The notes beneath the pieces are model-generated. The model did not search any database and was not told the DNA's origin. It saw only the letters and a list, made by a program, of their open reading frames with translations. Made by a program: the position numbers and the translations under genes. From a phage, in assembly GCA_038314665.1 (NCBI GenBank), contig GCA_038314665.1_3677.1: a stretch of DNA of 64,000 nucleotides; one strand, 5' to 3'. How positions within the stretch are numbered: the stretch's first letter is position 1; each line of letters starts with the position of its first letter. Of the stretch, positions 56,824-64,000 are shown one piece after another.

Positions 56824-58891
56824 ATTTATGGCATCTGCATATAACCGTTTCGGTGAGCCAAACCCGAAAGCAACTAAGTATAAAAGTGGGGGAAGTGTGA
56901 AACGAGACTATCGTGATGAAAAAGAGGTTGAAACTGTAGAGACTGTTTTAGAAAATACTAAAATCGTCCCTGTCCCACAACAAAATATCGGTCTGATGGC
57001 TGCACAATATTTTGGTGTGCGATCAGCATTGTCCCAAGAAGACGGTGTGACAGTTACTGCAACATATTTCCCATATTACGACCGCTACGGGAATCTGTCC
57101 GGTTTCAAAAAGCGTGACTGGACGATCCCCAAAGAGCAACGTGGGCACTTTACGACGGTTGGGATCGTAAAGGCTAACTCCCAAATGTTTGGGCAAAAGC
57201 TGTGTGCATCTTCTAACAACCGTAAGCAGATTAACGTTTGTGAGGGGGAAGGCGATGTTATTGCAGCATGGCAGGCTGCATATCAGATACAAGTAAAAGG
57301 GATTCTCACCAACGCTAAAGCCCCGGCAAAGGTGAAACAGTGGGCTAAAGAGGTCCAGGACGGGATCGATGCAGTTATCAACGGGGGTGATCTGGCAGGA
57401 AAACCCTGCCTGCCTTTTGTTGGAATTAACTGTGGATGTGCAAACGCAGTAGATACTTTTGCAAACAATGAGAAATTTATCCGTAGCTACGGAACAGTGG
57501 TCCTTGCAATGGACAACGATGCAGCTAACGAGGTAGAGAAGCAAAAACACGTTATCAAAGGTGTTGAAGCCACACATAATATCGCGGCATTTTTGATGGC
57601 TGATAACGTTTACCACGTGGAATACCCAAGTGAGGTAAACGACCCTGACGGTGTAAAAGATATCCGTGACATGCTGAAGGCTAAAAAGCTGGAAGATATT
57701 GTCAACATGTTCCGTCACCCAGTCAAATATGTGCCTGATGCTGTATCTGATTTAGAAGACTTCTCCATTGAATCTCTTCGTAAGAAGACTTCTAATGGCG
57801 TAGATATCAGCGCGGAGTTCCCTAAATTGCAGAAGATGCTGAAAGGACTTCACAAAGGCACCTTGATGATGCTGACAGGCCCATCTGGTGGTGGTAAAAC
57901 AACTGTAGCCAAGAAACTAGAGCACTGTATTGCAAAATACTTGATGGATCCGACATGCCCTAAAGCCGATGATTATGAAGAGGATGATCGCCTGTGTCTG
58001 ATTCACCTTGAAGAGGACCCTGAGGAAGCAATTAACTCTCTATACGCCAACCAGTTGGGGTTTGATGTTAAAGAGTTTGTTGAAGACCCTAGTCAGTTCC
58101 TGACTGATCAGGAGCATGCTGAGATTCACCAATCTTGGGCCAAGGCGGGAAAAATCAAAGTGTTCAAGCATTTTGGGTCTATTCCTGTAGATGAGTTGAT
58201 CACTAAGCTTAAACAAATGGTGTGTCTGTATCACTGCCGTTATATTGTGCTGGATCACCTGTCCATGGTAATTTCAGGGCTTAATGTTAAGGATGAGCGA
58301 AAAGAGCTGGACATGGCTATGACCCAACTAGCCGCGTTCTGTAAGCAGTTTAATGTGTTTATCTTGGTGATCGCTCACCTGAAACGCACAGAGATTGTGC
58401 CTCCAAAGGACAAGGATGGGAATCCGTTACCTTTCTGGTATCCTGTACGAAAAGAGAACCTTCGGGGTAGTGCCGGATTGGAGCAACTTAGCTGGGTAGT
58501 TGTTGGGGTGGAGGCAGAAGAGATGGTGGATCGTTCCCGTGGACGTGTCCGACTGGTAGGTCTTAAAAACCGCCCAGCAAAAACGTTAGGCATTGCGGAT
58601 ACCTTAGTTATGGATCCTCACACAGGTAAGTTCCATGATGCCAGCAACTGGTACTGGGACAAAGAAATGCAGATGTTCACAGACGGAGAAGGTGGGGAGG
58701 TTGTTTGGAGACCTCAAGCTATGTTTGAGGATCAAGAGCACGCAGTTGTAGAAACACCTGTAGGTAGGGTTGTGGCTGATAAGGTTGTAACTCCTACTGT
58801 TAACCATGTTGACACACAAGAAGACCTTCCGTATGATGATCCGTCCTCTGACCCTGTTCCCGGTTTTGAAGACGATGAAACACCTTTTTAA
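56813..58891 (+). CDS. primase-helicase (TOPRIM-like N-terminal region plus DnaB/gp4-like helicase)
   Basis: 692 aa; acidic VCEGEGDVIAA and AMDNDAANE in N-terminal half; helicase Walker A LTGPSGGGKT, Walker B IVLDHLSMV, motif NLRGSAGLEQ in C-terminal half; no N-terminal Cys4 zinc domain. Confidence 0.6.
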   Translation: MGSKFMASAYNRFGEPNPKATKYKSGGSVKRDYRDEKEVETVETVLENTKIVPVPQQNIGLMAAQYFGVRSALSQEDGVTVTATYFPYYDRYGNLSGFKKRDWTIPKEQRGHFTTVGIVKANSQMFGQKLCASSNNRKQINVCEGEGDVIAAWQAAYQIQVKGILTNAKAPAKVKQWAKEVQDGIDAVINGGDLAGKPCLPFVGINCGCANAVDTFANNEKFIRSYGTVVLAMDNDAANEVEKQKHVIKGVEATHNIAAFLMADNVYHVEYPSEVNDPDGVKDIRDMLKAKKLEDIVNMFRHPVKYVPDAVSDLEDFSIESLRKKTSNGVDISAEFPKLQKMLKGLHKGTLMMLTGPSGGGKTTVAKKLEHCIAKYLMDPTCPKADDYEEDDRLCLIHLEEDPEEAINSLYANQLGFDVKEFVEDPSQFLTDQEHAEIHQSWAKAGKIKVFKHFGSIPVDELITKLKQMVCLYHCRYIVLDHLSMVISGLNVKDERKELDMAMTQLAAFCKQFNVFILVIAHLKRTEIVPPKDKDGNPLPFWYPVRKENLRGSAGLEQLSWVVVGVEAEEMVDRSRGRVRLVGLKNRPAKTLGIADTLVMDPHTGKFHDASNWYWDKEMQMFTDGEGGEVVWRPQAMFEDQEHAVVETPVGRVVADKVVTPTVNHVDTQEDLPYDDPSSDPVPGFEDDETPF

Positions 58892-58949: not shown

Positions 58950-61379
58950 ATGAGTATGTGGTCTTTCGACCTGGAGGCCTCTGGTTTACTAGAAGACCTA
59001 GATCTTTATTATCACTGCGGCTTGTTTAAAGAGCTGAATAAGAACCGTTTTATGCTGTTCCTTCCTCTAAATGACCGCACACACTACTCTGAAGAGGATA
59101 TAGAGAAGGCTAAGAACTTTATTCTGGCAAAGAAAACTCTTTATAAAGATTTTGAAGTTCGCATAGCAGATTTTTCAGAGTTGGAAGGTTGGCTTACAGG
59201 CAATTCTGACTGGTCACCCACAGCTTTGAACTGCCACAACTGCTACAGCTACGACTTTATGCTGATGGAGAGATTGTCCGGTATTCATTTTGATATGTTC
59301 CGTGATCCTAAGTGTATGGGGACTATCAACGACCACCAGGTTAATCTGTTTGATACATTGGCTATGAGCCGAATTTTGTGGCCTGACCGACCTTTGCCAA
59401 AAGGTTGTCCAGACTCAGTATTTAACCCGGTTACTAAGAAAATGCAGCCTGTTGGACCTCACGGTCTTATGGCATGGGGCTACGCCCTTGGTAACCAGAA
59501 AGTTCAAATTGATGACTGGCGCGATCTCCCGTTGTGGAAGTATGTGGATCGTGTATTCGAGGACGTTATCATCCAGGAGCTACTCTGGAAAGAGCTGGTA
59601 GCGGAATCAAAAGGTGTATTCTACGGCAAATCTGACATGCAGAACTTTATGTACGATCCAGCCAAAGAGAAGCCGAAAGGGTTCAAGAAGATCACCTGGA
59701 AGAACGCATTACGTCGAGGCATGCTGCAGCACTTCCTGATGGAGCTGCAGGCCCGTCAGGGTGTATACTTCGACATAGATGGAGCTATTGCTTTACGTGA
59801 CCGTTGCGATGCGTGGATGAAAGAAATAGCTGATCGTGTTGAACCACAACTGCCTTTAAAAGAGCTGTCAATGTCTCAGCGGCCCAAATTCCCTGAAAAG
59901 CCGTTTAACCAAGACGGGACAATCTCTAATAATGGTTGGAAATGGTTAAAAGATAAGCTTGGCTATCCTGTAGACATGAGCGCTTTAGAGTTCAAAGCCC
60001 CGCCTAAGAGAGCATTTACCTCTACAGGGGATGTCAGCAAGATGGGGATAAAATGGTGTGAAGAGATGGGCTGCAAAGACCCCGATAAGATGGCTGATTT
60101 CTTGAGAGGCTATATTAAGGGCACTTCCACACCACACCCTTTGCCTAAAGAGCTGATGGATCAGGCAATAAGTGATCTACAGCAGAAGCGAATGCCGGAC
60201 TGCAAGATACCTATGAAAATCAGCAATCAGGACGACATTAAGCGGTATCTGATCAGCGCTGGCTGGCTCCCGACAATGTGGAGAACTAAGGATGTAACTA
60301 AAGACAGCAAGAAGAAAGCTCTACCTGATGCAGATGTTGATGCACGAGTATATGCTTATATGGACGAGCTTTTAGAGTCAGAGTATTGTGACCTAATTAT
60401 CAACTTCTGGAACAAAACTGATGCTAAGTTCCAGACAACCGTGCACAAGTTCCGAAGCTTTCCTAACTCCGAAAGGATTAAAAAGGAAGTGTTCGGGAAA
60501 ATACGTAGAAAAGCCAGGGCACTTATTACTTCTCCGCAACTGAAAGATACGTTTGGACACCTGTGCCCGAATCTTGAAAAATTGAACGGAGAGATGGCTA
60601 AAGATATCGTCTTGTGGTTATCATTGCGAAACCGCAGATCGGTCCTTGACCCAATCAAGGAGGATAAGGTTGATACTGGTCTTCTTAATCACCCACGTTT
60701 GAAGATTGACCATAAGCTTCCTGCTAAAAGTTCTGGGCTAACAAACACTTCCAGACAGAAACACAGTATTTGTGCAAACATGCCTAAACCATCTCCTAAA
60801 GTGGTTATGGGTAAAGAGATGCGTAGTCTATGGGGTGTTCCTCCTGGATACTTTCAGATCGGTATTGACGGGTCCAACTTAGAGCAGCTTATCGGGGCTT
60901 GGGGTGCCTTTGAGTTCGACAACGGCCTGTATTATGATGTTGTAAGTAACGGAGACGCACACCAAAACAATGCTGAGGCATATACAAAAGTAGCAGGCAG
61001 AGAGGTGTCCCGTAACGACGGTAAACCTATCACGTATGGTGTTATGTACGGGGCACAAAAAGATAAAGTTGCAGATATGCTGGACATCTCTCCAGAGTTG
61101 GGGCAAAGGGTAATAGATGCACTTTGGGATGCCAACCCCGGTCTTAAGGGGCGCAAAGAGGATCTGGAGAAATTCTGGGAAGCAACAGGTAAGAAGTTTA
61201 TCTACTCTTTTGATGGTCATGCTATCTGGACCCGATCTAAACACTCTTTACTTAATGCATACCAACAAAATGGTGGTGCATCGCTGTGTGACTTAGTCGG
61301 GATACTCATGCACCACCAAATGGTGAAGCGTGGGTGGTACGATGAAGGTGTCCGTCGTATTATTTATTACCATAAATAA
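58950..61379 (+). CDS. family A DNA polymerase, exon 1 (exonuclease, motif A and motif B)
   Basis: 809-aa ORF; N-terminal FDLEASGL (Exo I DxE), motif A GIDGSNLEQL, motif B RNDGKPITYGVMYGA; ORF stops before a canonical motif C region is completed. Confidence 0.65.
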   Translation: MSMWSFDLEASGLLEDLDLYYHCGLFKELNKNRFMLFLPLNDRTHYSEEDIEKAKNFILAKKTLYKDFEVRIADFSELEGWLTGNSDWSPTALNCHNCYSYDFMLMERLSGIHFDMFRDPKCMGTINDHQVNLFDTLAMSRILWPDRPLPKGCPDSVFNPVTKKMQPVGPHGLMAWGYALGNQKVQIDDWRDLPLWKYVDRVFEDVIIQELLWKELVAESKGVFYGKSDMQNFMYDPAKEKPKGFKKITWKNALRRGMLQHFLMELQARQGVYFDIDGAIALRDRCDAWMKEIADRVEPQLPLKELSMSQRPKFPEKPFNQDGTISNNGWKWLKDKLGYPVDMSALEFKAPPKRAFTSTGDVSKMGIKWCEEMGCKDPDKMADFLRGYIKGTSTPHPLPKELMDQAISDLQQKRMPDCKIPMKISNQDDIKRYLISAGWLPTMWRTKDVTKDSKKKALPDADVDARVYAYMDELLESEYCDLIINFWNKTDAKFQTTVHKFRSFPNSERIKKEVFGKIRRKARALITSPQLKDTFGHLCPNLEKLNGEMAKDIVLWLSLRNRRSVLDPIKEDKVDTGLLNHPRLKIDHKLPAKSSGLTNTSRQKHSICANMPKPSPKVVMGKEMRSLWGVPPGYFQIGIDGSNLEQLIGAWGAFEFDNGLYYDVVSNGDAHQNNAEAYTKVAGREVSRNDGKPITYGVMYGAQKDKVADMLDISPELGQRVIDALWDANPGLKGRKEDLEKFWEATGKKFIYSFDGHAIWTRSKHSLLNAYQQNGGASLCDLVGILMHHQMVKRGWYDEGVRRIIYYHK

Positions 61380-61646
61380 CATTGTGGCTTCATAGAGTAA
61401 TCTATGTCGAATAACCTCTTTAACTGCGGGAAGCCTAAACCTTATGGCAAGGTAATCCGCAACGAAGCGCTCAAAAGAGCGAACGCTCAGAGGCCATTCC
61501 GAAAGGAAGTAGACCAGCAAGTGCGGTCGAAATGGGAGGATTCCTGTGGTTGCTTATCATAGGAATATGAGATGGTCCGATCCTACGTGAAAACGTATGG
61601 CTATGCACGTAATGGTGCGGGGTAGCTTAACGACCTACCTGAACTA
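61380..61646 (+). ncRNA. putative group I self-splicing intron core in the DNA polymerase gene
   Basis: Non-coding gap containing, in order, P-like CTGCGGGAAG, Q-like AATCCGCAAC, R-like GCTCAGAGGCCA and S-like GAGATGGTCC elements with short hairpins between; exact splice sites not determined, 5' site probably lies inside the last codons of exon 1. Confidence 0.5.
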
Positions 61647-62003
61647 TTGGATGAGTACCAACTTCAAGTGCCTGACACACCGAAGTATAAGACTGTGTAC
61701 ACCTTCGACACAATTGAAGAACTGGAAGCATTTAAGGCAGAGCAGGAGGCCAAACTTCATGTGTTCGACGGTCATAAGTACAAAAAGGCACGCAAGGATG
61801 AGGACGGAAACGAAGTGGTTGACAGAGACGGAAACACGGTGTACGATCCTATTCTGAACGATGACGGAAAGCTTGAACTTATCTGGAGCCCTGTGGGTGA
61901 AATGGTGGTGCATTGCTTCTGGCAAGCTTCTAAAATGATGGGAGTCCCGTTCCAGATCACAGGTGAATACTTGTGTGGTCGTAACTGGGGTGATTGTCAC
62001 TAA
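61647..62003 (+). CDS. family A DNA polymerase, candidate exon 2 (C-terminal segment)
   Basis: Frame opens at 61626 without ATG or RBS; ends ...GRNWGDCH, resembling the conserved pol A C-terminus ending in His (E. coli pol I ...GENWDQAH, T7 ...GPNWAICH, recalled). Confidence 0.45.
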   Translation: MDEYQLQVPDTPKYKTVYTFDTIEELEAFKAEQEAKLHVFDGHKYKKARKDEDGNEVVDRDGNTVYDPILNDDGKLELIWSPVGEMVVHCFWQASKMMGVPFQITGEYLCGRNWGDCH

Positions 62004-62052
62004 TGTAAACCATCAGCACAGGGAGGTGCTGTTGAGCAAAGAGGAGACTTTT

Positions 62053-62337
62053 ATGGTAGTAGAGCCAACAAAAACATTTACATCCATGACCATTCCTGTT
62101 ATTATGCAGGTGGAGTGTGTTCAGGTATCTCAAGTGTGGCCCGGCACCAAAATCCCAACAGGGCCTGATTTCTTTCAGGTTGGGAAAGTGTACAATGTCT
62201 GGAAGGCACCAGATTGTTACCCTTTCATTAAAGATGACCGTGGGATGCTGTGGTACCTTGGAAATGACTTGACACTGCACCTTGGGAATACTATTATTGC
62301 AGTATTCAGACTTAACAAGAAGGAGACCGATCAATGA
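62053..62337 (+). CDS. small paralogue family B, member 1
   Basis: ATG 62053 with GAGGAG RBS (track ORF starts earlier at 61963); motif FFQVGKVY...IKDDRGMLWYL. Confidence 0.45.
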   Translation: MVVEPTKTFTSMTIPVIMQVECVQVSQVWPGTKIPTGPDFFQVGKVYNVWKAPDCYPFIKDDRGMLWYLGNDLTLHLGNTIIAVFRLNKKETDQ

Positions 62338-62561
62338 CGACTTTGGTTAAAGCTACCTTTGTAGAAGAAAAGATGACAGACCTGTCATTCTTTAAAGAAG
62401 GAAAGACCTACGAGGTTTATTACGATAAAGCTCGTGCAAACAAAATGATTAAAGACGAGGAAGGGGTTGCCTGGTATATCTCTCACCTGGCAAACGGTGA
62501 GTATCATATCTACGGAACCACTTTGCTTGCCAAGTTTGTAGTTGTTGAAGAGGACCTATGA
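62334..62561 (+). CDS. small paralogue family B, member 2
   Basis: 75 aa; FFKEGKTY...IKDEEGVAWYI. Confidence 0.45.
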   Translation: MTTLVKATFVEEKMTDLSFFKEGKTYEVYYDKARANKMIKDEEGVAWYISHLANGEYHIYGTTLLAKFVVVEEDL

Positions 62562-62752
62562 AAGTAAAGTATCTTGCTGAAGGTATGAATAGGTATTTTA
62601 CCCTTGGTGAAGAATATTGGCCCTTTACAAACAACGGCGATGTCTACGTGAAAGATAATTTCGGCACGCCGTGGTTTCTGCACTCTAATGGGCTGGGATA
62701 CTCCATTTACTGCGGTGCAGTGAACAACACAACTCTTGCAGAGTTCGTTTAG
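62558..62752 (+). CDS. small paralogue family B, member 3
   Basis: 64 aa; YFTLGEEY...VKDNFGTPWFL. Confidence 0.45.
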   Translation: MKVKYLAEGMNRYFTLGEEYWPFTNNGDVYVKDNFGTPWFLHSNGLGYSIYCGAVNNTTLAEFV

Positions 62753-62762
62753 AGGAGGTAGG

Positions 62763-63134
62763 ATGTTAGTAAAAGGTACCCACACAGTTAAACAACGTAT
62801 TGAAGTTGAGATTGATGATTGTGAGCTGAAGCATATTTTACGGTCATGCTCCAACGTTTTGCTCCTTAGTATTCTTCAGGAGCGAGCGGAGAACGAGTTC
62901 TTAAATGCATTGGCAGGCCGTCCCGGTGACTTCTGTGTGCGTAAGCGTGGTGACAACAAGTCGTGGTTGTGGGAGATCGATGCCGACTGGGATTACCACA
63001 AAAATGAGGGTATAGATGAGCCTATTCGTGAACTGACTGAAAACGAAGTTCAGATGTACGAAGATGTTTGCCAGTGGGCAAAAAGTCAACAAACCTACCT
63101 TGATCCTTGGTGGATGATTGAAAATAGTCGTTGA
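62763..63134 (+). CDS. hypothetical protein
   Basis: ATG 62763 with GAGGAGG RBS (track start 62736). Confidence 0.45.
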   Translation: MLVKGTHTVKQRIEVEIDDCELKHILRSCSNVLLLSILQERAENEFLNALAGRPGDFCVRKRGDNKSWLWEIDADWDYHKNEGIDEPIRELTENEVQMYEDVCQWAKSQQTYLDPWWMIENSR

Positions 63135-63159
63135 CAAGAAGTAAAGTTAGATGTAAGAT
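63131..63159 (+). promoter_or_regulatory. sigma70-like promoter (TTGACA-N17-TAAGAT)
   Basis: -35 TTGACA 63131-63136, 17-nt spacer, -10 TAAGAT 63154-63159, upstream of 63211 ORF. Confidence 0.5.
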
Positions 63160-63210
63160 ACTCCCCACAAACAGAGTATTGATTGTTAAATAATTAAGGA
63201 GACCTCCAAG

Positions 63211-63465
63211 ATGAAAATCATGTTGAAACCAGAATGCGTTGCAAACGACCGAGCTTTTAAAGATTGCACACTTGGCACTATTTATGAAGCAGAGTTTTGT
63301 GAGAACCCTTTGGTAAAAGCCCTTTTGGAAGAAGGGGCCCCTTTATCACAAGAAGAGATTGATGAGCTGGAAAACTCAGTACAGTGCCTTACCTTTAAAG
63401 ATGATGAAGGAGACTCTGTCTGGTGCACTGTTAATGAAGTAGTTTTTGTAAAACCTGAACATTAA
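63211..63465 (+). CDS. small paralogue family B, member 4
   Basis: 84 aa; AFKDCTLGTIY...FKDDEGDSVWCT; AAGGAGA RBS. Confidence 0.5.
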   Translation: MKIMLKPECVANDRAFKDCTLGTIYEAEFCENPLVKALLEEGAPLSQEEIDELENSVQCLTFKDDEGDSVWCTVNEVVFVKPEH

Positions 63466-63468
63466 TAC

Positions 63469-63497
63469 TTGACAACAGTGATGGGGCCTAATATAAT
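63469..63497 (+). promoter_or_regulatory. consensus sigma70 promoter (TTGACA-N17-TATAAT) with flanking palindrome
   Basis: -35 TTGACA 63469-63474, 17-nt spacer, -10 TATAAT 63492-63497; GGGCC...GGCCC inverted repeat brackets the -10. Confidence 0.55.
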
Positions 63498-63528
63498 GGC
63501 CCTATCAAAACGAAAGGGGACCACAGCA

Positions 63529-63801
63529 ATGACCAAACAATATCAACGAATTAAAGCCAAGGTTAAGCCAGACTATCTGGAGAAAGACTCTGCTTTTCGG
63601 GACTGCACAGCTGACAAAGTTTACACAGGGGCCGTCCTGTTGAACGATGAACTTGAAGTAGATATTCTGGGTAAAGAGGCAACTATTAAGGACGACCAAG
63701 GCGATTATGTTTGCTGCACCACACGTGAGCTAGAAATCTTAGAATACTTCGGTGAAATCTTCACCTCTCTTGATGATTACTTAGATGATGAGGAAGCGTG
63801 A
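63529..63801 (+). CDS. small paralogue family B, member 5
   Basis: ATG 63529 downstream of the consensus promoter (track start 63469 would place the promoter inside the gene); SAFRDCTADKVY...IKDDQGDYVCCT. Confidence 0.5.
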   Translation: MTKQYQRIKAKVKPDYLEKDSAFRDCTADKVYTGAVLLNDELEVDILGKEATIKDDQGDYVCCTTRELEILEYFGEIFTSLDDYLDDEEA

Positions 63802-64000
63802 TGAAAAATATTTGGGATATTGATATCTTTAAAGCCTCTAAGCTTGATGGTGCTGATGGAGTGATTATGGTGTCTGATGGCAAGGCAACACTAACTTCCG
63901 GAGATATCATCTATGCATTGGACGAGCTGGCACTTCTGAAATCTACTGGTAACACTTTGGAGGAGCGTCTTCAAGGATTCGCTTTCAAAGAAGGTACAAA
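63801..64000 (+). CDS. hypothetical protein (5' part; continues beyond window)
   Basis: ATG overlapping upstream stop (ATGA); open to the window end. Confidence 0.4.
   Translation, partial: MKNIWDIDIFKASKLDGADGVIMVSDGKATLTSGDIIYALDELALLKSTGNTLEERLQGFAFKEGT

Follow-up and report, generated by a model that had tools for sequence, protein, structure and literature searches.

Small paralogous genes behind the DNA polymerase gene of an rV5-like phage: a putative array of SH3-like barrels

What are the small genes that directly follow the DNA polymerase gene of rV5-like phages, are they copies of one another, and what might their products do? These questions are raised by a 64,000-nucleotide stretch of phage DNA (GenBank assembly GCA_038314665.1, contig GCA_038314665.1_3677.1), called the window below, of which bases 61500-64000 are 97-98% identical to the Escherichia phages phiWec193, phiWec196 and rV5 (Vequintavirus) and match 132 phage records. 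Six genes, p1 to p6, lie there on the + strand (Table 1). In rV5 their counterparts, rv5_gp219 to gp214, are all annotated 'hypothetical protein' and directly follow a DNA polymerase annotated as two pieces. An earlier note on this DNA had described five of the six (p1, p2, p3, p5 and p6) as a family of paralogues behind host-type promoters. Our best explanation, which we hold to be moderately probable when taken as a whole, is that tandem duplication has given rise to an array of SH3-like barrels at this locus, with p1-p3 of the type of Gp54 from phage Bas11, and that the products are accessory proteins binding host proteins.

Pairwise comparison of the open reading frames (ORFs), with Smith-Waterman scores set against 500 shuffles, revealed two groups. 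Within the first, z was 11.4 for p1-p2, 5.3 for p2-p3 and 3.5 for p1-p3; the second consists of p5 and p6, with a z of 13.1. None of the six pairs across the groups was significant (all at z < 1.5), a direct hhalign comparison of the p1-p3 and p5-p6 profiles gave a probability of 1.9%, with the hairpin alone aligned, and searches of sequences with hidden Markov models (HMMs) never crossed between p1-p3 and p5-p6. The PHROGs database places each ORF in a separate family without an assigned function, with weak cross-matches inside each group, such as that of p5 to phrog_11936 at 1.9e-5. Close homologues of both groups were found in Vequintavirus only, by word-indexed searches with the subfamily profiles and by tblastn against phages. 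From the z scores, the PHROG pattern, the range of homologues and the direct hhalign comparison we therefore conclude that p1-p3 and p5-p6 are, on pairwise and direct profile tests, two subfamilies and not one. The five-member paralogous family of the earlier note is thus strongly supported within each group, and between the groups by way of the enlarged profile described below only.

The two motifs said to be shared by the five ORFs fared differently. The KDD-type hairpin is found in all of them: the six-frame ORF segments of the window (71,829 residues) contain the pattern K-D-[DEN]-x-G at 7 places, 5 of which are inside the five ORFs. The F..G..Y segment is exact in p1-p3 only; in p5 it reads F-x5-G-x2-Y, and in p6 the glycine is missing. 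For the five ORFs nothing was returned by Pfam, by NCBIfam or by a search of PDB sequences with a profile, so that, with all PHROGs being of unknown function, the description of small paralogous genes without an assigned function stands. Gene p4 was tried as a member and rejected: four of its five pairs gave z < 1.2, the family HMMs (A3-A8, sf) miss it, and its best pair, with p5, at a z of 2.3 (16 of 500 shuffles), is not significant over 15 pairs. It has no Pfam match either. The set of five therefore lies where the earlier note had placed it, but not as an uninterrupted run, since the unrelated p4 sits between p3 and p5. HMM scans of the whole window yielded no further family members.

More distant relatives were found in an exhaustive HMMER search of 1.84 billion representatives with the p1-p3 profile, which gave 19 matches in total. 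Genuine single-domain matches were P0077, P0083 and P0088. Proteins made of tandem repeats with a unit of about 60 residues, from metagenomic or phage contigs, were found at E 2e-9 to 4e-4: P0079 and P0086 with 4 copies each, P0080 and P0087 with 5, and P0085 with 2; P0089 consists of two copies fused to DUF3310. Six further matches (P0076, P0078, P0081, P0082, P0084 and P0090) were dropped as low-complexity or repeat artefacts. The domain consensus reads 'vkvGd.l.C...fT.GK.Y.V...v.DD.G...F..vE', and its part 'vkvGd.l.C...fT.GK.Y.V...v.DD.G' is common to the window family; a repeat protein carries its copies in a single fused chain, whereas in the window they are separate genes. P0087 matches both the PHROG of p1 and phrog_17459, the latter being also matched by p5 and p6. 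The repeat proteins did not come up when the enlarged profile was used in a word-indexed search, which added only relatives of one repeat, from phages of Enterococcus and Lactobacillus. Closer at hand, rv5_gp211 (L001 7989-8234, 81 aa), about 0.7 kb past the end of the window, is a further paralogue (E 6e-4 with the A6 profile, 4e-7 with the enlarged one). It reads ...KVRCVE...LTQGKEYAV...FEIFDDDGDPITC..., has an insert between beta2 and beta3 as p5 does, and weakly matches DUF7244.

The link between the two groups is seen only when the profile is enlarged by such remote homologues. The A6 profile (32 sequences) aligned to the p5/p6 family at a probability of 31% (P 5e-4), both motifs being in register. 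With the 43-sequence profile the probability was 50-56% (P 1.1e-4), and the alignment ran through 47-48 columns, beta1 to beta4. The score of the enlarged profile was 25.9, compared to 8.7 +/- 2.0 (maximum 18.3) for a column-shuffle null, and was reached by 0 of 200 shuffles; it persisted, at 22.7-26.3, with any subset removed, including the window's own family. Because score, shuffles and subset removal agree, we judge it likely, from sequence profiles, that all five belong to a single remote superfamily. Statistical support for common ancestry, which the earlier note had made the test of its proposal, is thus present inside the subfamilies, absent on direct cross-comparison, and present again with the enlarged profile.

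Structure prediction is consistent with this. The p2 model (AlphaFold2, A6 alignment, no templates) is all-beta, with a predicted local distance difference test score of 88.6, and has the features of the Gp54 structure 9AXB, namely six strands that form a small beta-barrel, and a prominent beta1-beta2 loop. The p1 protein appears as a long-form barrel, with a long beta1-beta2 loop. The p6 model is a five-stranded SH3-like barrel followed by an acidic C-terminal tail, and its secondary-structure elements come in an order identical to that of p2. In p5, some 25 residues, helical by composition, are inserted between beta2 and beta3. When the p2 model was compared to the BFVD collection with Foldseek, about 50 uncharacterised small viral proteins were retrieved, with a probability of mostly 1.0 and a query-normalised template modelling (TM) score of mostly 0.5-0.8. 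The majority belong to T1-like phages, which frequently have several in one genome (four in vB_EcoS_NBD2); the others include proteins of Vequintavirus isim, Cronobacter phage CR9 and phAPEC8, and a DUF3310 protein. The isim protein A0A6B9X1Z6 (78 aa, labelled 'putative minor capsid protein') has the predicted fold of p2, at a TM-score of 0.68; it is not encoded in the isim region syntenic to the array locus. Canonical SH3/KOW small barrels, such as the Sho1 SH3 domain (2VKN) and the Ski2 insertion domain, are also among the closest known systems. We consider the assignment of p1-p3, in fold and family, to barrels of the Gp54(Bas11) type to be highly probable. Six genes annotated 'hypothetical protein' now have a predicted fold, and the likely starts of gp214 and gp219 are corrected.

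Could p1-p3 and p5-p6 instead be two unrelated neighbouring families, in which the KDDxG hairpin and the aromatic strand arose by convergence? The lack of any direct cross-match, whether in pairs, between profiles or in HMM searches, is what such a situation would give, as are the degenerate F..G..Y segments of p5 and p6 and the absence of 9AXB among the matches listed for the p6 model. Against it stand the register that the enlarged profile finds and its robustness to shuffling and to removal of subsets, the shared matches of p5, p6 and P0087 to phrog_17459, P0087 falling also in the p1-family PHROG, the common order of secondary-structure elements in the p2 and p6 models, the adjacency of the genes in one array and the concentration of the window's KD[DEN]xG motifs in these ORFs. 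We regard convergence of two families as rather unlikely, and hold the single remote superfamily to be the likelier reading.

Gp54 itself is the only structural relative that has been characterised. It has 66 residues, no known function and its own promoter, and is non-essential in the laboratory (Zhang et al., Nature 2024, PMC11578894). It binds the antitoxin pseudo-zinc-finger domain of the defence protein CapRelSJ46 with a dissociation constant of 800 nM, partly unfolds, and forms with it a hybrid beta-sheet, whereby the toxin is activated (PMC11578894). Homologues of Gp54 in related phages do not trigger CapRelSJ46, and Bas11 escapes CapRel by the Gp54 point mutations G24D and W43*, the G24D protein being folded but non-binding (PMC11578894). 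The same authors suggested that Gp54 may inhibit another defence system (PMC11578894). Compared to the window proteins, Gp54 (PDB 9AXB, 9ERV) is 16% identical, with no significant sequence or profile similarity; it lacks the KDD hairpin motif, it comes from Drexlerviridae whereas the array is from Vequintavirinae, and no Gp54 other than that of Bas11 triggers CapRelSJ46. The p5 and p6 proteins are putative five-stranded forms, and 9AXB is not among the 60 matches listed for the p6 model. Where hhalign does align the family to Gp54, its register agrees with the structural match, F21/G24 falling on F..G and G40/W43 on G..W.

Gene context brings the two closer. In 4 of 12 T1-like loci, the gene lying directly downstream of the Gp54 homologue is matched by the A6 HMM, which was built without T1-like sequences, at E 1e-8 to 3e-3 (tuinn, 1e-8; two IMG/VR contigs, 3e-7 and 3e-5; Supreme284, 3e-3), and the enlarged profile adds FSL SP-126 (6e-5) as a fifth Gp54-adjacent gene. 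Since these matches adjoin Gp54 homologues, Gp54-type genes and the window family occur side by side in small-gene arrays of T1-like phages, much as predicted for the window. The C-terminal domain of tuinn_34 is matched by both profiles, and that of Bas11 gp48 was marginal with A6 (E 0.022) and then entered the training set of the enlarged profile. Besides Gp54, T1-like phages thus have several members of the superfamily that are detectable by sequence, for example tuinn_38, tuinn_34 and Bas11 gp48. Before they were included in the profile, Bas11 gp41 (DUF7244), gp61 and gp71 were only borderline matches (E about 0.03).

Several points weigh against our explanation, in addition to the failure of pairwise and direct profile comparison to join the two groups. 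Models were obtained for p2 and p6 alone, and are predictions; SH3-like barrels are common, so that convergence on a beta-hairpin motif is possible, and the p6 model did not bring up 9AXB. None of the five ORFs matched Pfam PF25180, 'Phage antiviral trigger protein Gp54', even at E <= 1, Gp54(Bas11) itself scoring 116 bits. In hhalign, the family profiles reached a probability of 0.1-6% against an alignment of 11 Gp54 sequences, values of 1.5-6% going with P 0.006-0.03, and the score was attained by 6 of 200 shuffles, which is not significant; the A6 profile found nothing relevant among PDB sequences. The analogy with Gp54 carries a binding mode and not a role. In literature searches, nothing usable was found on transcriptomes or interactions of any Vequintavirus, nor on defence triggers mapping to the array genes. 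Because the sequence definitions of PF25180 and DUF7244 both failed, the five ORFs are, as far as these definitions go, members of neither, though p2 is predicted to have the Gp54 fold. All database records call the array genes hypothetical, and we came across no paper that connects genes of Vequintavirus with Gp54.

In the explanation we favour, the locus would be a tandem-duplicated array of stand-alone SH3-like beta-barrels of about 60-90 residues, all from one remote superfamily, with 'vkC.' in beta1, 'F(T).GK.Y.V' in beta2 and 'KDD.G..W' in the beta3-beta4 hairpin as its putative consensus. The motif residues most likely make up the aromatic core and a tight turn, and would for this reason define a fold rather than an active site, specificity being held by the variable loops and edges. 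The p1-p3 proteins would represent a long form, with an extra hairpin, a long beta1-beta2 loop and the rare barrel predicted for them, as in Gp54 of Bas11, and p5-p6 a minimal form of five strands, to which p5 adds an insert and p6 an acidic tail. Each barrel would use an exposed strand or loop to dock on a partner of its own, from host or phage, for which the beta-sheet augmentation of Gp54 on CapRelSJ46 may serve as a model. Duplication followed by divergence would diversify the targets. The barrels would modulate host physiology or defence, and defence systems could conversely sense them. By analogy, a role in binding host proteins or in anti-defence is possible, and we propose it tentatively.

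A different role would follow from the polymerase next door: the barrels may be accessory factors of replication or nucleotide metabolism, with the polymerase or replisome of the phage, nucleic acid or nucleotides as what they bind. However, the close homologues are confined to Vequintavirus while the polymerase is conserved far more widely, the T1-like relatives lie in clusters of small accessory genes, away from replication enzymes, the acidic character of the proteins (pI 4.2-6.5, pI being the isoelectric point) speaks against binding of nucleic acid, and Gp54 is dispensable (PMC11578894). We find such a role improbable. P0087 has a setting of its own: its 61-kb contig also encodes a dNMP kinase, a nucleoside deoxyribosyltransferase, Alp7A and ArdA, and these surroundings are an accessory, not a structural, context.

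A further relative to consider is DUF7244 (PF23896, SH3 clan), a stand-alone SH3-like phage protein of about 57 residues with the pattern 'MKVKCVE...Y.EG.VYEA...YKIKDESG', described as a 'standalone SH3' next to the Drexlerviridae lysis cassette and proposed to act on the cell wall (PMC13164509). The family profile reaches it weakly (Bas11 gp41, E 0.029 in 2,679 ORFs), and rv5_gp211 and P0087 give sub-threshold matches to it; none of the five ORFs matched it at E <= 1, the positive control Bas11 gp41 scoring 92.5 bits, and its context is a lysis module whereas that of the array is a replication module. That the array encodes either SH3 helpers of lysis or cell-wall binding, a role put forward for DUF7244 in T1-like phages, or minor virion proteins, is very improbable: apart from the weak reach to gp41 (PMC13164509), it has on its side a Foldseek match labelled 'putative minor capsid protein' and phrog_14592, 'virion structural protein' (both unverified annotations), but no ORF matches DUF7244, no N-terminal hydrophobic signal-like segment was seen on inspection, no predictor being run, lysis and structural genes are distant and late-type promoters absent, and the array proteins were not found by name in an incomplete search of the rV5 supplements.

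If the fold prediction holds, three neighbouring genes in each rV5-like phage would share a single fold with many genes of T1-like phages, which would provide comparative material for asking what proteins of the Gp54 fold do for a phage. The products of gp214-219, small and non-toxic in appearance, are candidates for screening against E. coli defence systems, which they might trigger or inhibit. The genes are conserved in about 116 phage records of the databases, part of which belong to therapeutic or typing collections. More speculatively, and with little confidence, Gp54-type barrels might be the tip of a large, fast-evolving superfamily that comes as single-domain arrays in rV5-like and T1-like coliphages and as fusions of 2-5 copies elsewhere, and that phages would duplicate and diversify so as to neutralise various immune or regulatory proteins of the host; the rV5 array would then be a set of several distinct anti-defence inhibitors, and CapRel-like sensors would have evolved to recognise members as markers of infection.

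With regard to expression, sigma-70 hexamers at 17-nt spacing, conserved among relatives, were found at three sites, which are predicted promoters (Table 1). The near-consensus promoters that the earlier note had seen at 63131 and 63469 are confirmed, in hexamer matches as in conservation. These two promoters precede p5 and p6 only; p1 has no intergenic promoter, and the third site, at 62269, lies inside p1, upstream of p2. Invariance over nine genomes is 83-100% in the hexamers, compared to 41-47% in the spacers. At 63131, where the -35 hexamer overlaps the p4 stop codon, both hexamers are invariant and the spacer is at 41%. At 63469 the -35 hexamer is invariant and the -10 reads TATAAT in 7 of the 9 genomes and TACAAT in 2; this site is not in the rV5 list, the rV5 -10 being TACAAT and ORF 219 being given an upstream start that overlaps the site. 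At 62269 the hexamers are invariant and neighbouring third codon positions vary, conservation there being confounded by coding constraint.

A sigma-70 promoter alone does not mean 'early', as the authors of the rV5 paper predicted 33 such promoters spread over the genome. The putative late-promoter motif of rV5, TGGTAAAATA, with at most 1 mismatch, has 22 sites in the window compared to 6.0 +/- 2.4 expected, 19 of them on the + strand; no + strand copy is found after 57901, the last site, at 57892, lying upstream of the polymerase gene. No terminator-like site was detected between the array genes. We infer from the sequence that the array is expressed early or in the middle of infection. Genes p1-p4 would be transcribed by read-through from the polymerase operon, perhaps helped by the internal site at 62269, and p5 and p6 would each be boosted by their own host-type promoter and expressed before the late genes.

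Table 1. Array genes and predicted promoters in the window (pI, isoelectric point)
Feature	Position	Strand	Length	Counterpart or record in other phages	pI	Motifs or sequence	PHROG
p1	62053-62337	+	94 aa	rv5_gp219 orthologue with shorter start	6.5	FFQVGKVY, FIKDDRGMLW	phrog_12922
p2	62334-62561	+	75 aa	rv5_gp218	5.05	FFKEGKTY, MIKDEEGVAW	
p3	62558-62752	+	64 aa	rv5_gp217	5.0	YFTLGEEY, YVKDNFGTPW	
p4	62763-63134	+	123 aa	rv5_gp216	4.8 (acidic)		phrog_6273
p5	63211-63465	+	84 aa	rv5_gp215	4.2	TFKDDEGDSVWC	phrog_12544
p6	63529-63801	+	90 aa	rv5_gp214	4.2	TIKDDQGDYVCC	
Promoter-like site, inside 3' part of p1, 37 nt upstream of p2 start	62269-62297	+		rV5 'P224', Table S4		TTGACA-N17-TATTAT, 11/12	
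Promoter, before p5	63131-63159	+		rV5 'P220'; annotated in rV5 and Gotham		TTGACA-N17-TAAGAT, 10/12	
Promoter, before p6	63469-63497	+		PhagePromoter annotation in Gotham		TTGACA-N17-TATAAT, 12/12	

Genes p1-p3, p5 and p6 are all intact in the 9 aligned Vequintavirus genomes, where the ratio of non-synonymous to synonymous substitution rates is 0.02 for p1, 0.16 for p2, 0.11 for p6, and 0.09 for each of p3, p4 and p5. The five ORFs of 64-94 aa, confirmed in place, are real genes under purifying selection, and have strong ribosome-binding sites. That of p1, AGAGGAGAC before the ATG, is invariant in the 9 genomes, and nothing else is found in the 49-nt gap that separates p1 from exon 2 of the polymerase gene. 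Translational coupling is suggested by the ATGA overlaps that join p1 to p2 and p2 to p3. The p6 protein ends with the acidic sequence ...LDDYLDDEEA. In several public records, gp214 starts at the ATG at 63496, overlapping the -10 hexamer of the conserved promoter, and gp219 starts far upstream (61963), overlapping the end of the polymerase gene. Based on the promoter position and the invariant ribosome-binding sites, we favour starts at 63529 for p6 and 62053 for p1.

Two irregularities were noted among orthologues. Several database versions of p5 (P0069-P0075) are frameshifted or truncated after ...LVKALLEEG, inside the insert unique to p5; these may be sequencing errors at a base run, or genuine gene loss in some phages. 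In the p1 orthologues P0026 and P0027, an 11-residue internal tandem duplication (KAPDCHPFIKE-KAPNCYPFIKDD) covers the beta2-beta3 connection through the hairpin motif.

The polymerase gene upstream of the array is split by a 276-nt group I intron without an ORF (61374-61649, + strand; Rfam RF00028, 64.7 bits, E 3.8e-15), between ...IIYYH and DEYQ..., that is, inside the catalytic HDE motif C. Its boundaries were set by alignment to the intron-less polymerase of magaca, the 5' exon ending in T and the intron in G, and the spliced product has 925 aa. The rV5 paper reported introns in the terminase only, and gave the polymerase as 775 aa. The intron is polymorphic in the genus: Gotham, ECP2309, S127 BCL3 and magaca have an uninterrupted 2778-nt gene annotation, and a separate short coding sequence for exon 2 is found in the window phage, rV5, FV3 and JEP1.

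Finally, 16 GenBank records bearing the name 'Campylobacter phage' (MG0656xx, with Campylobacter jejuni as host) share 95-100% identity with bases 61500-64000 of the window. Since this is an rV5-like region of E. coli phages, the sequence identity suggests that these records are mislabelled phages, or contaminants in the MG0656xx data set.

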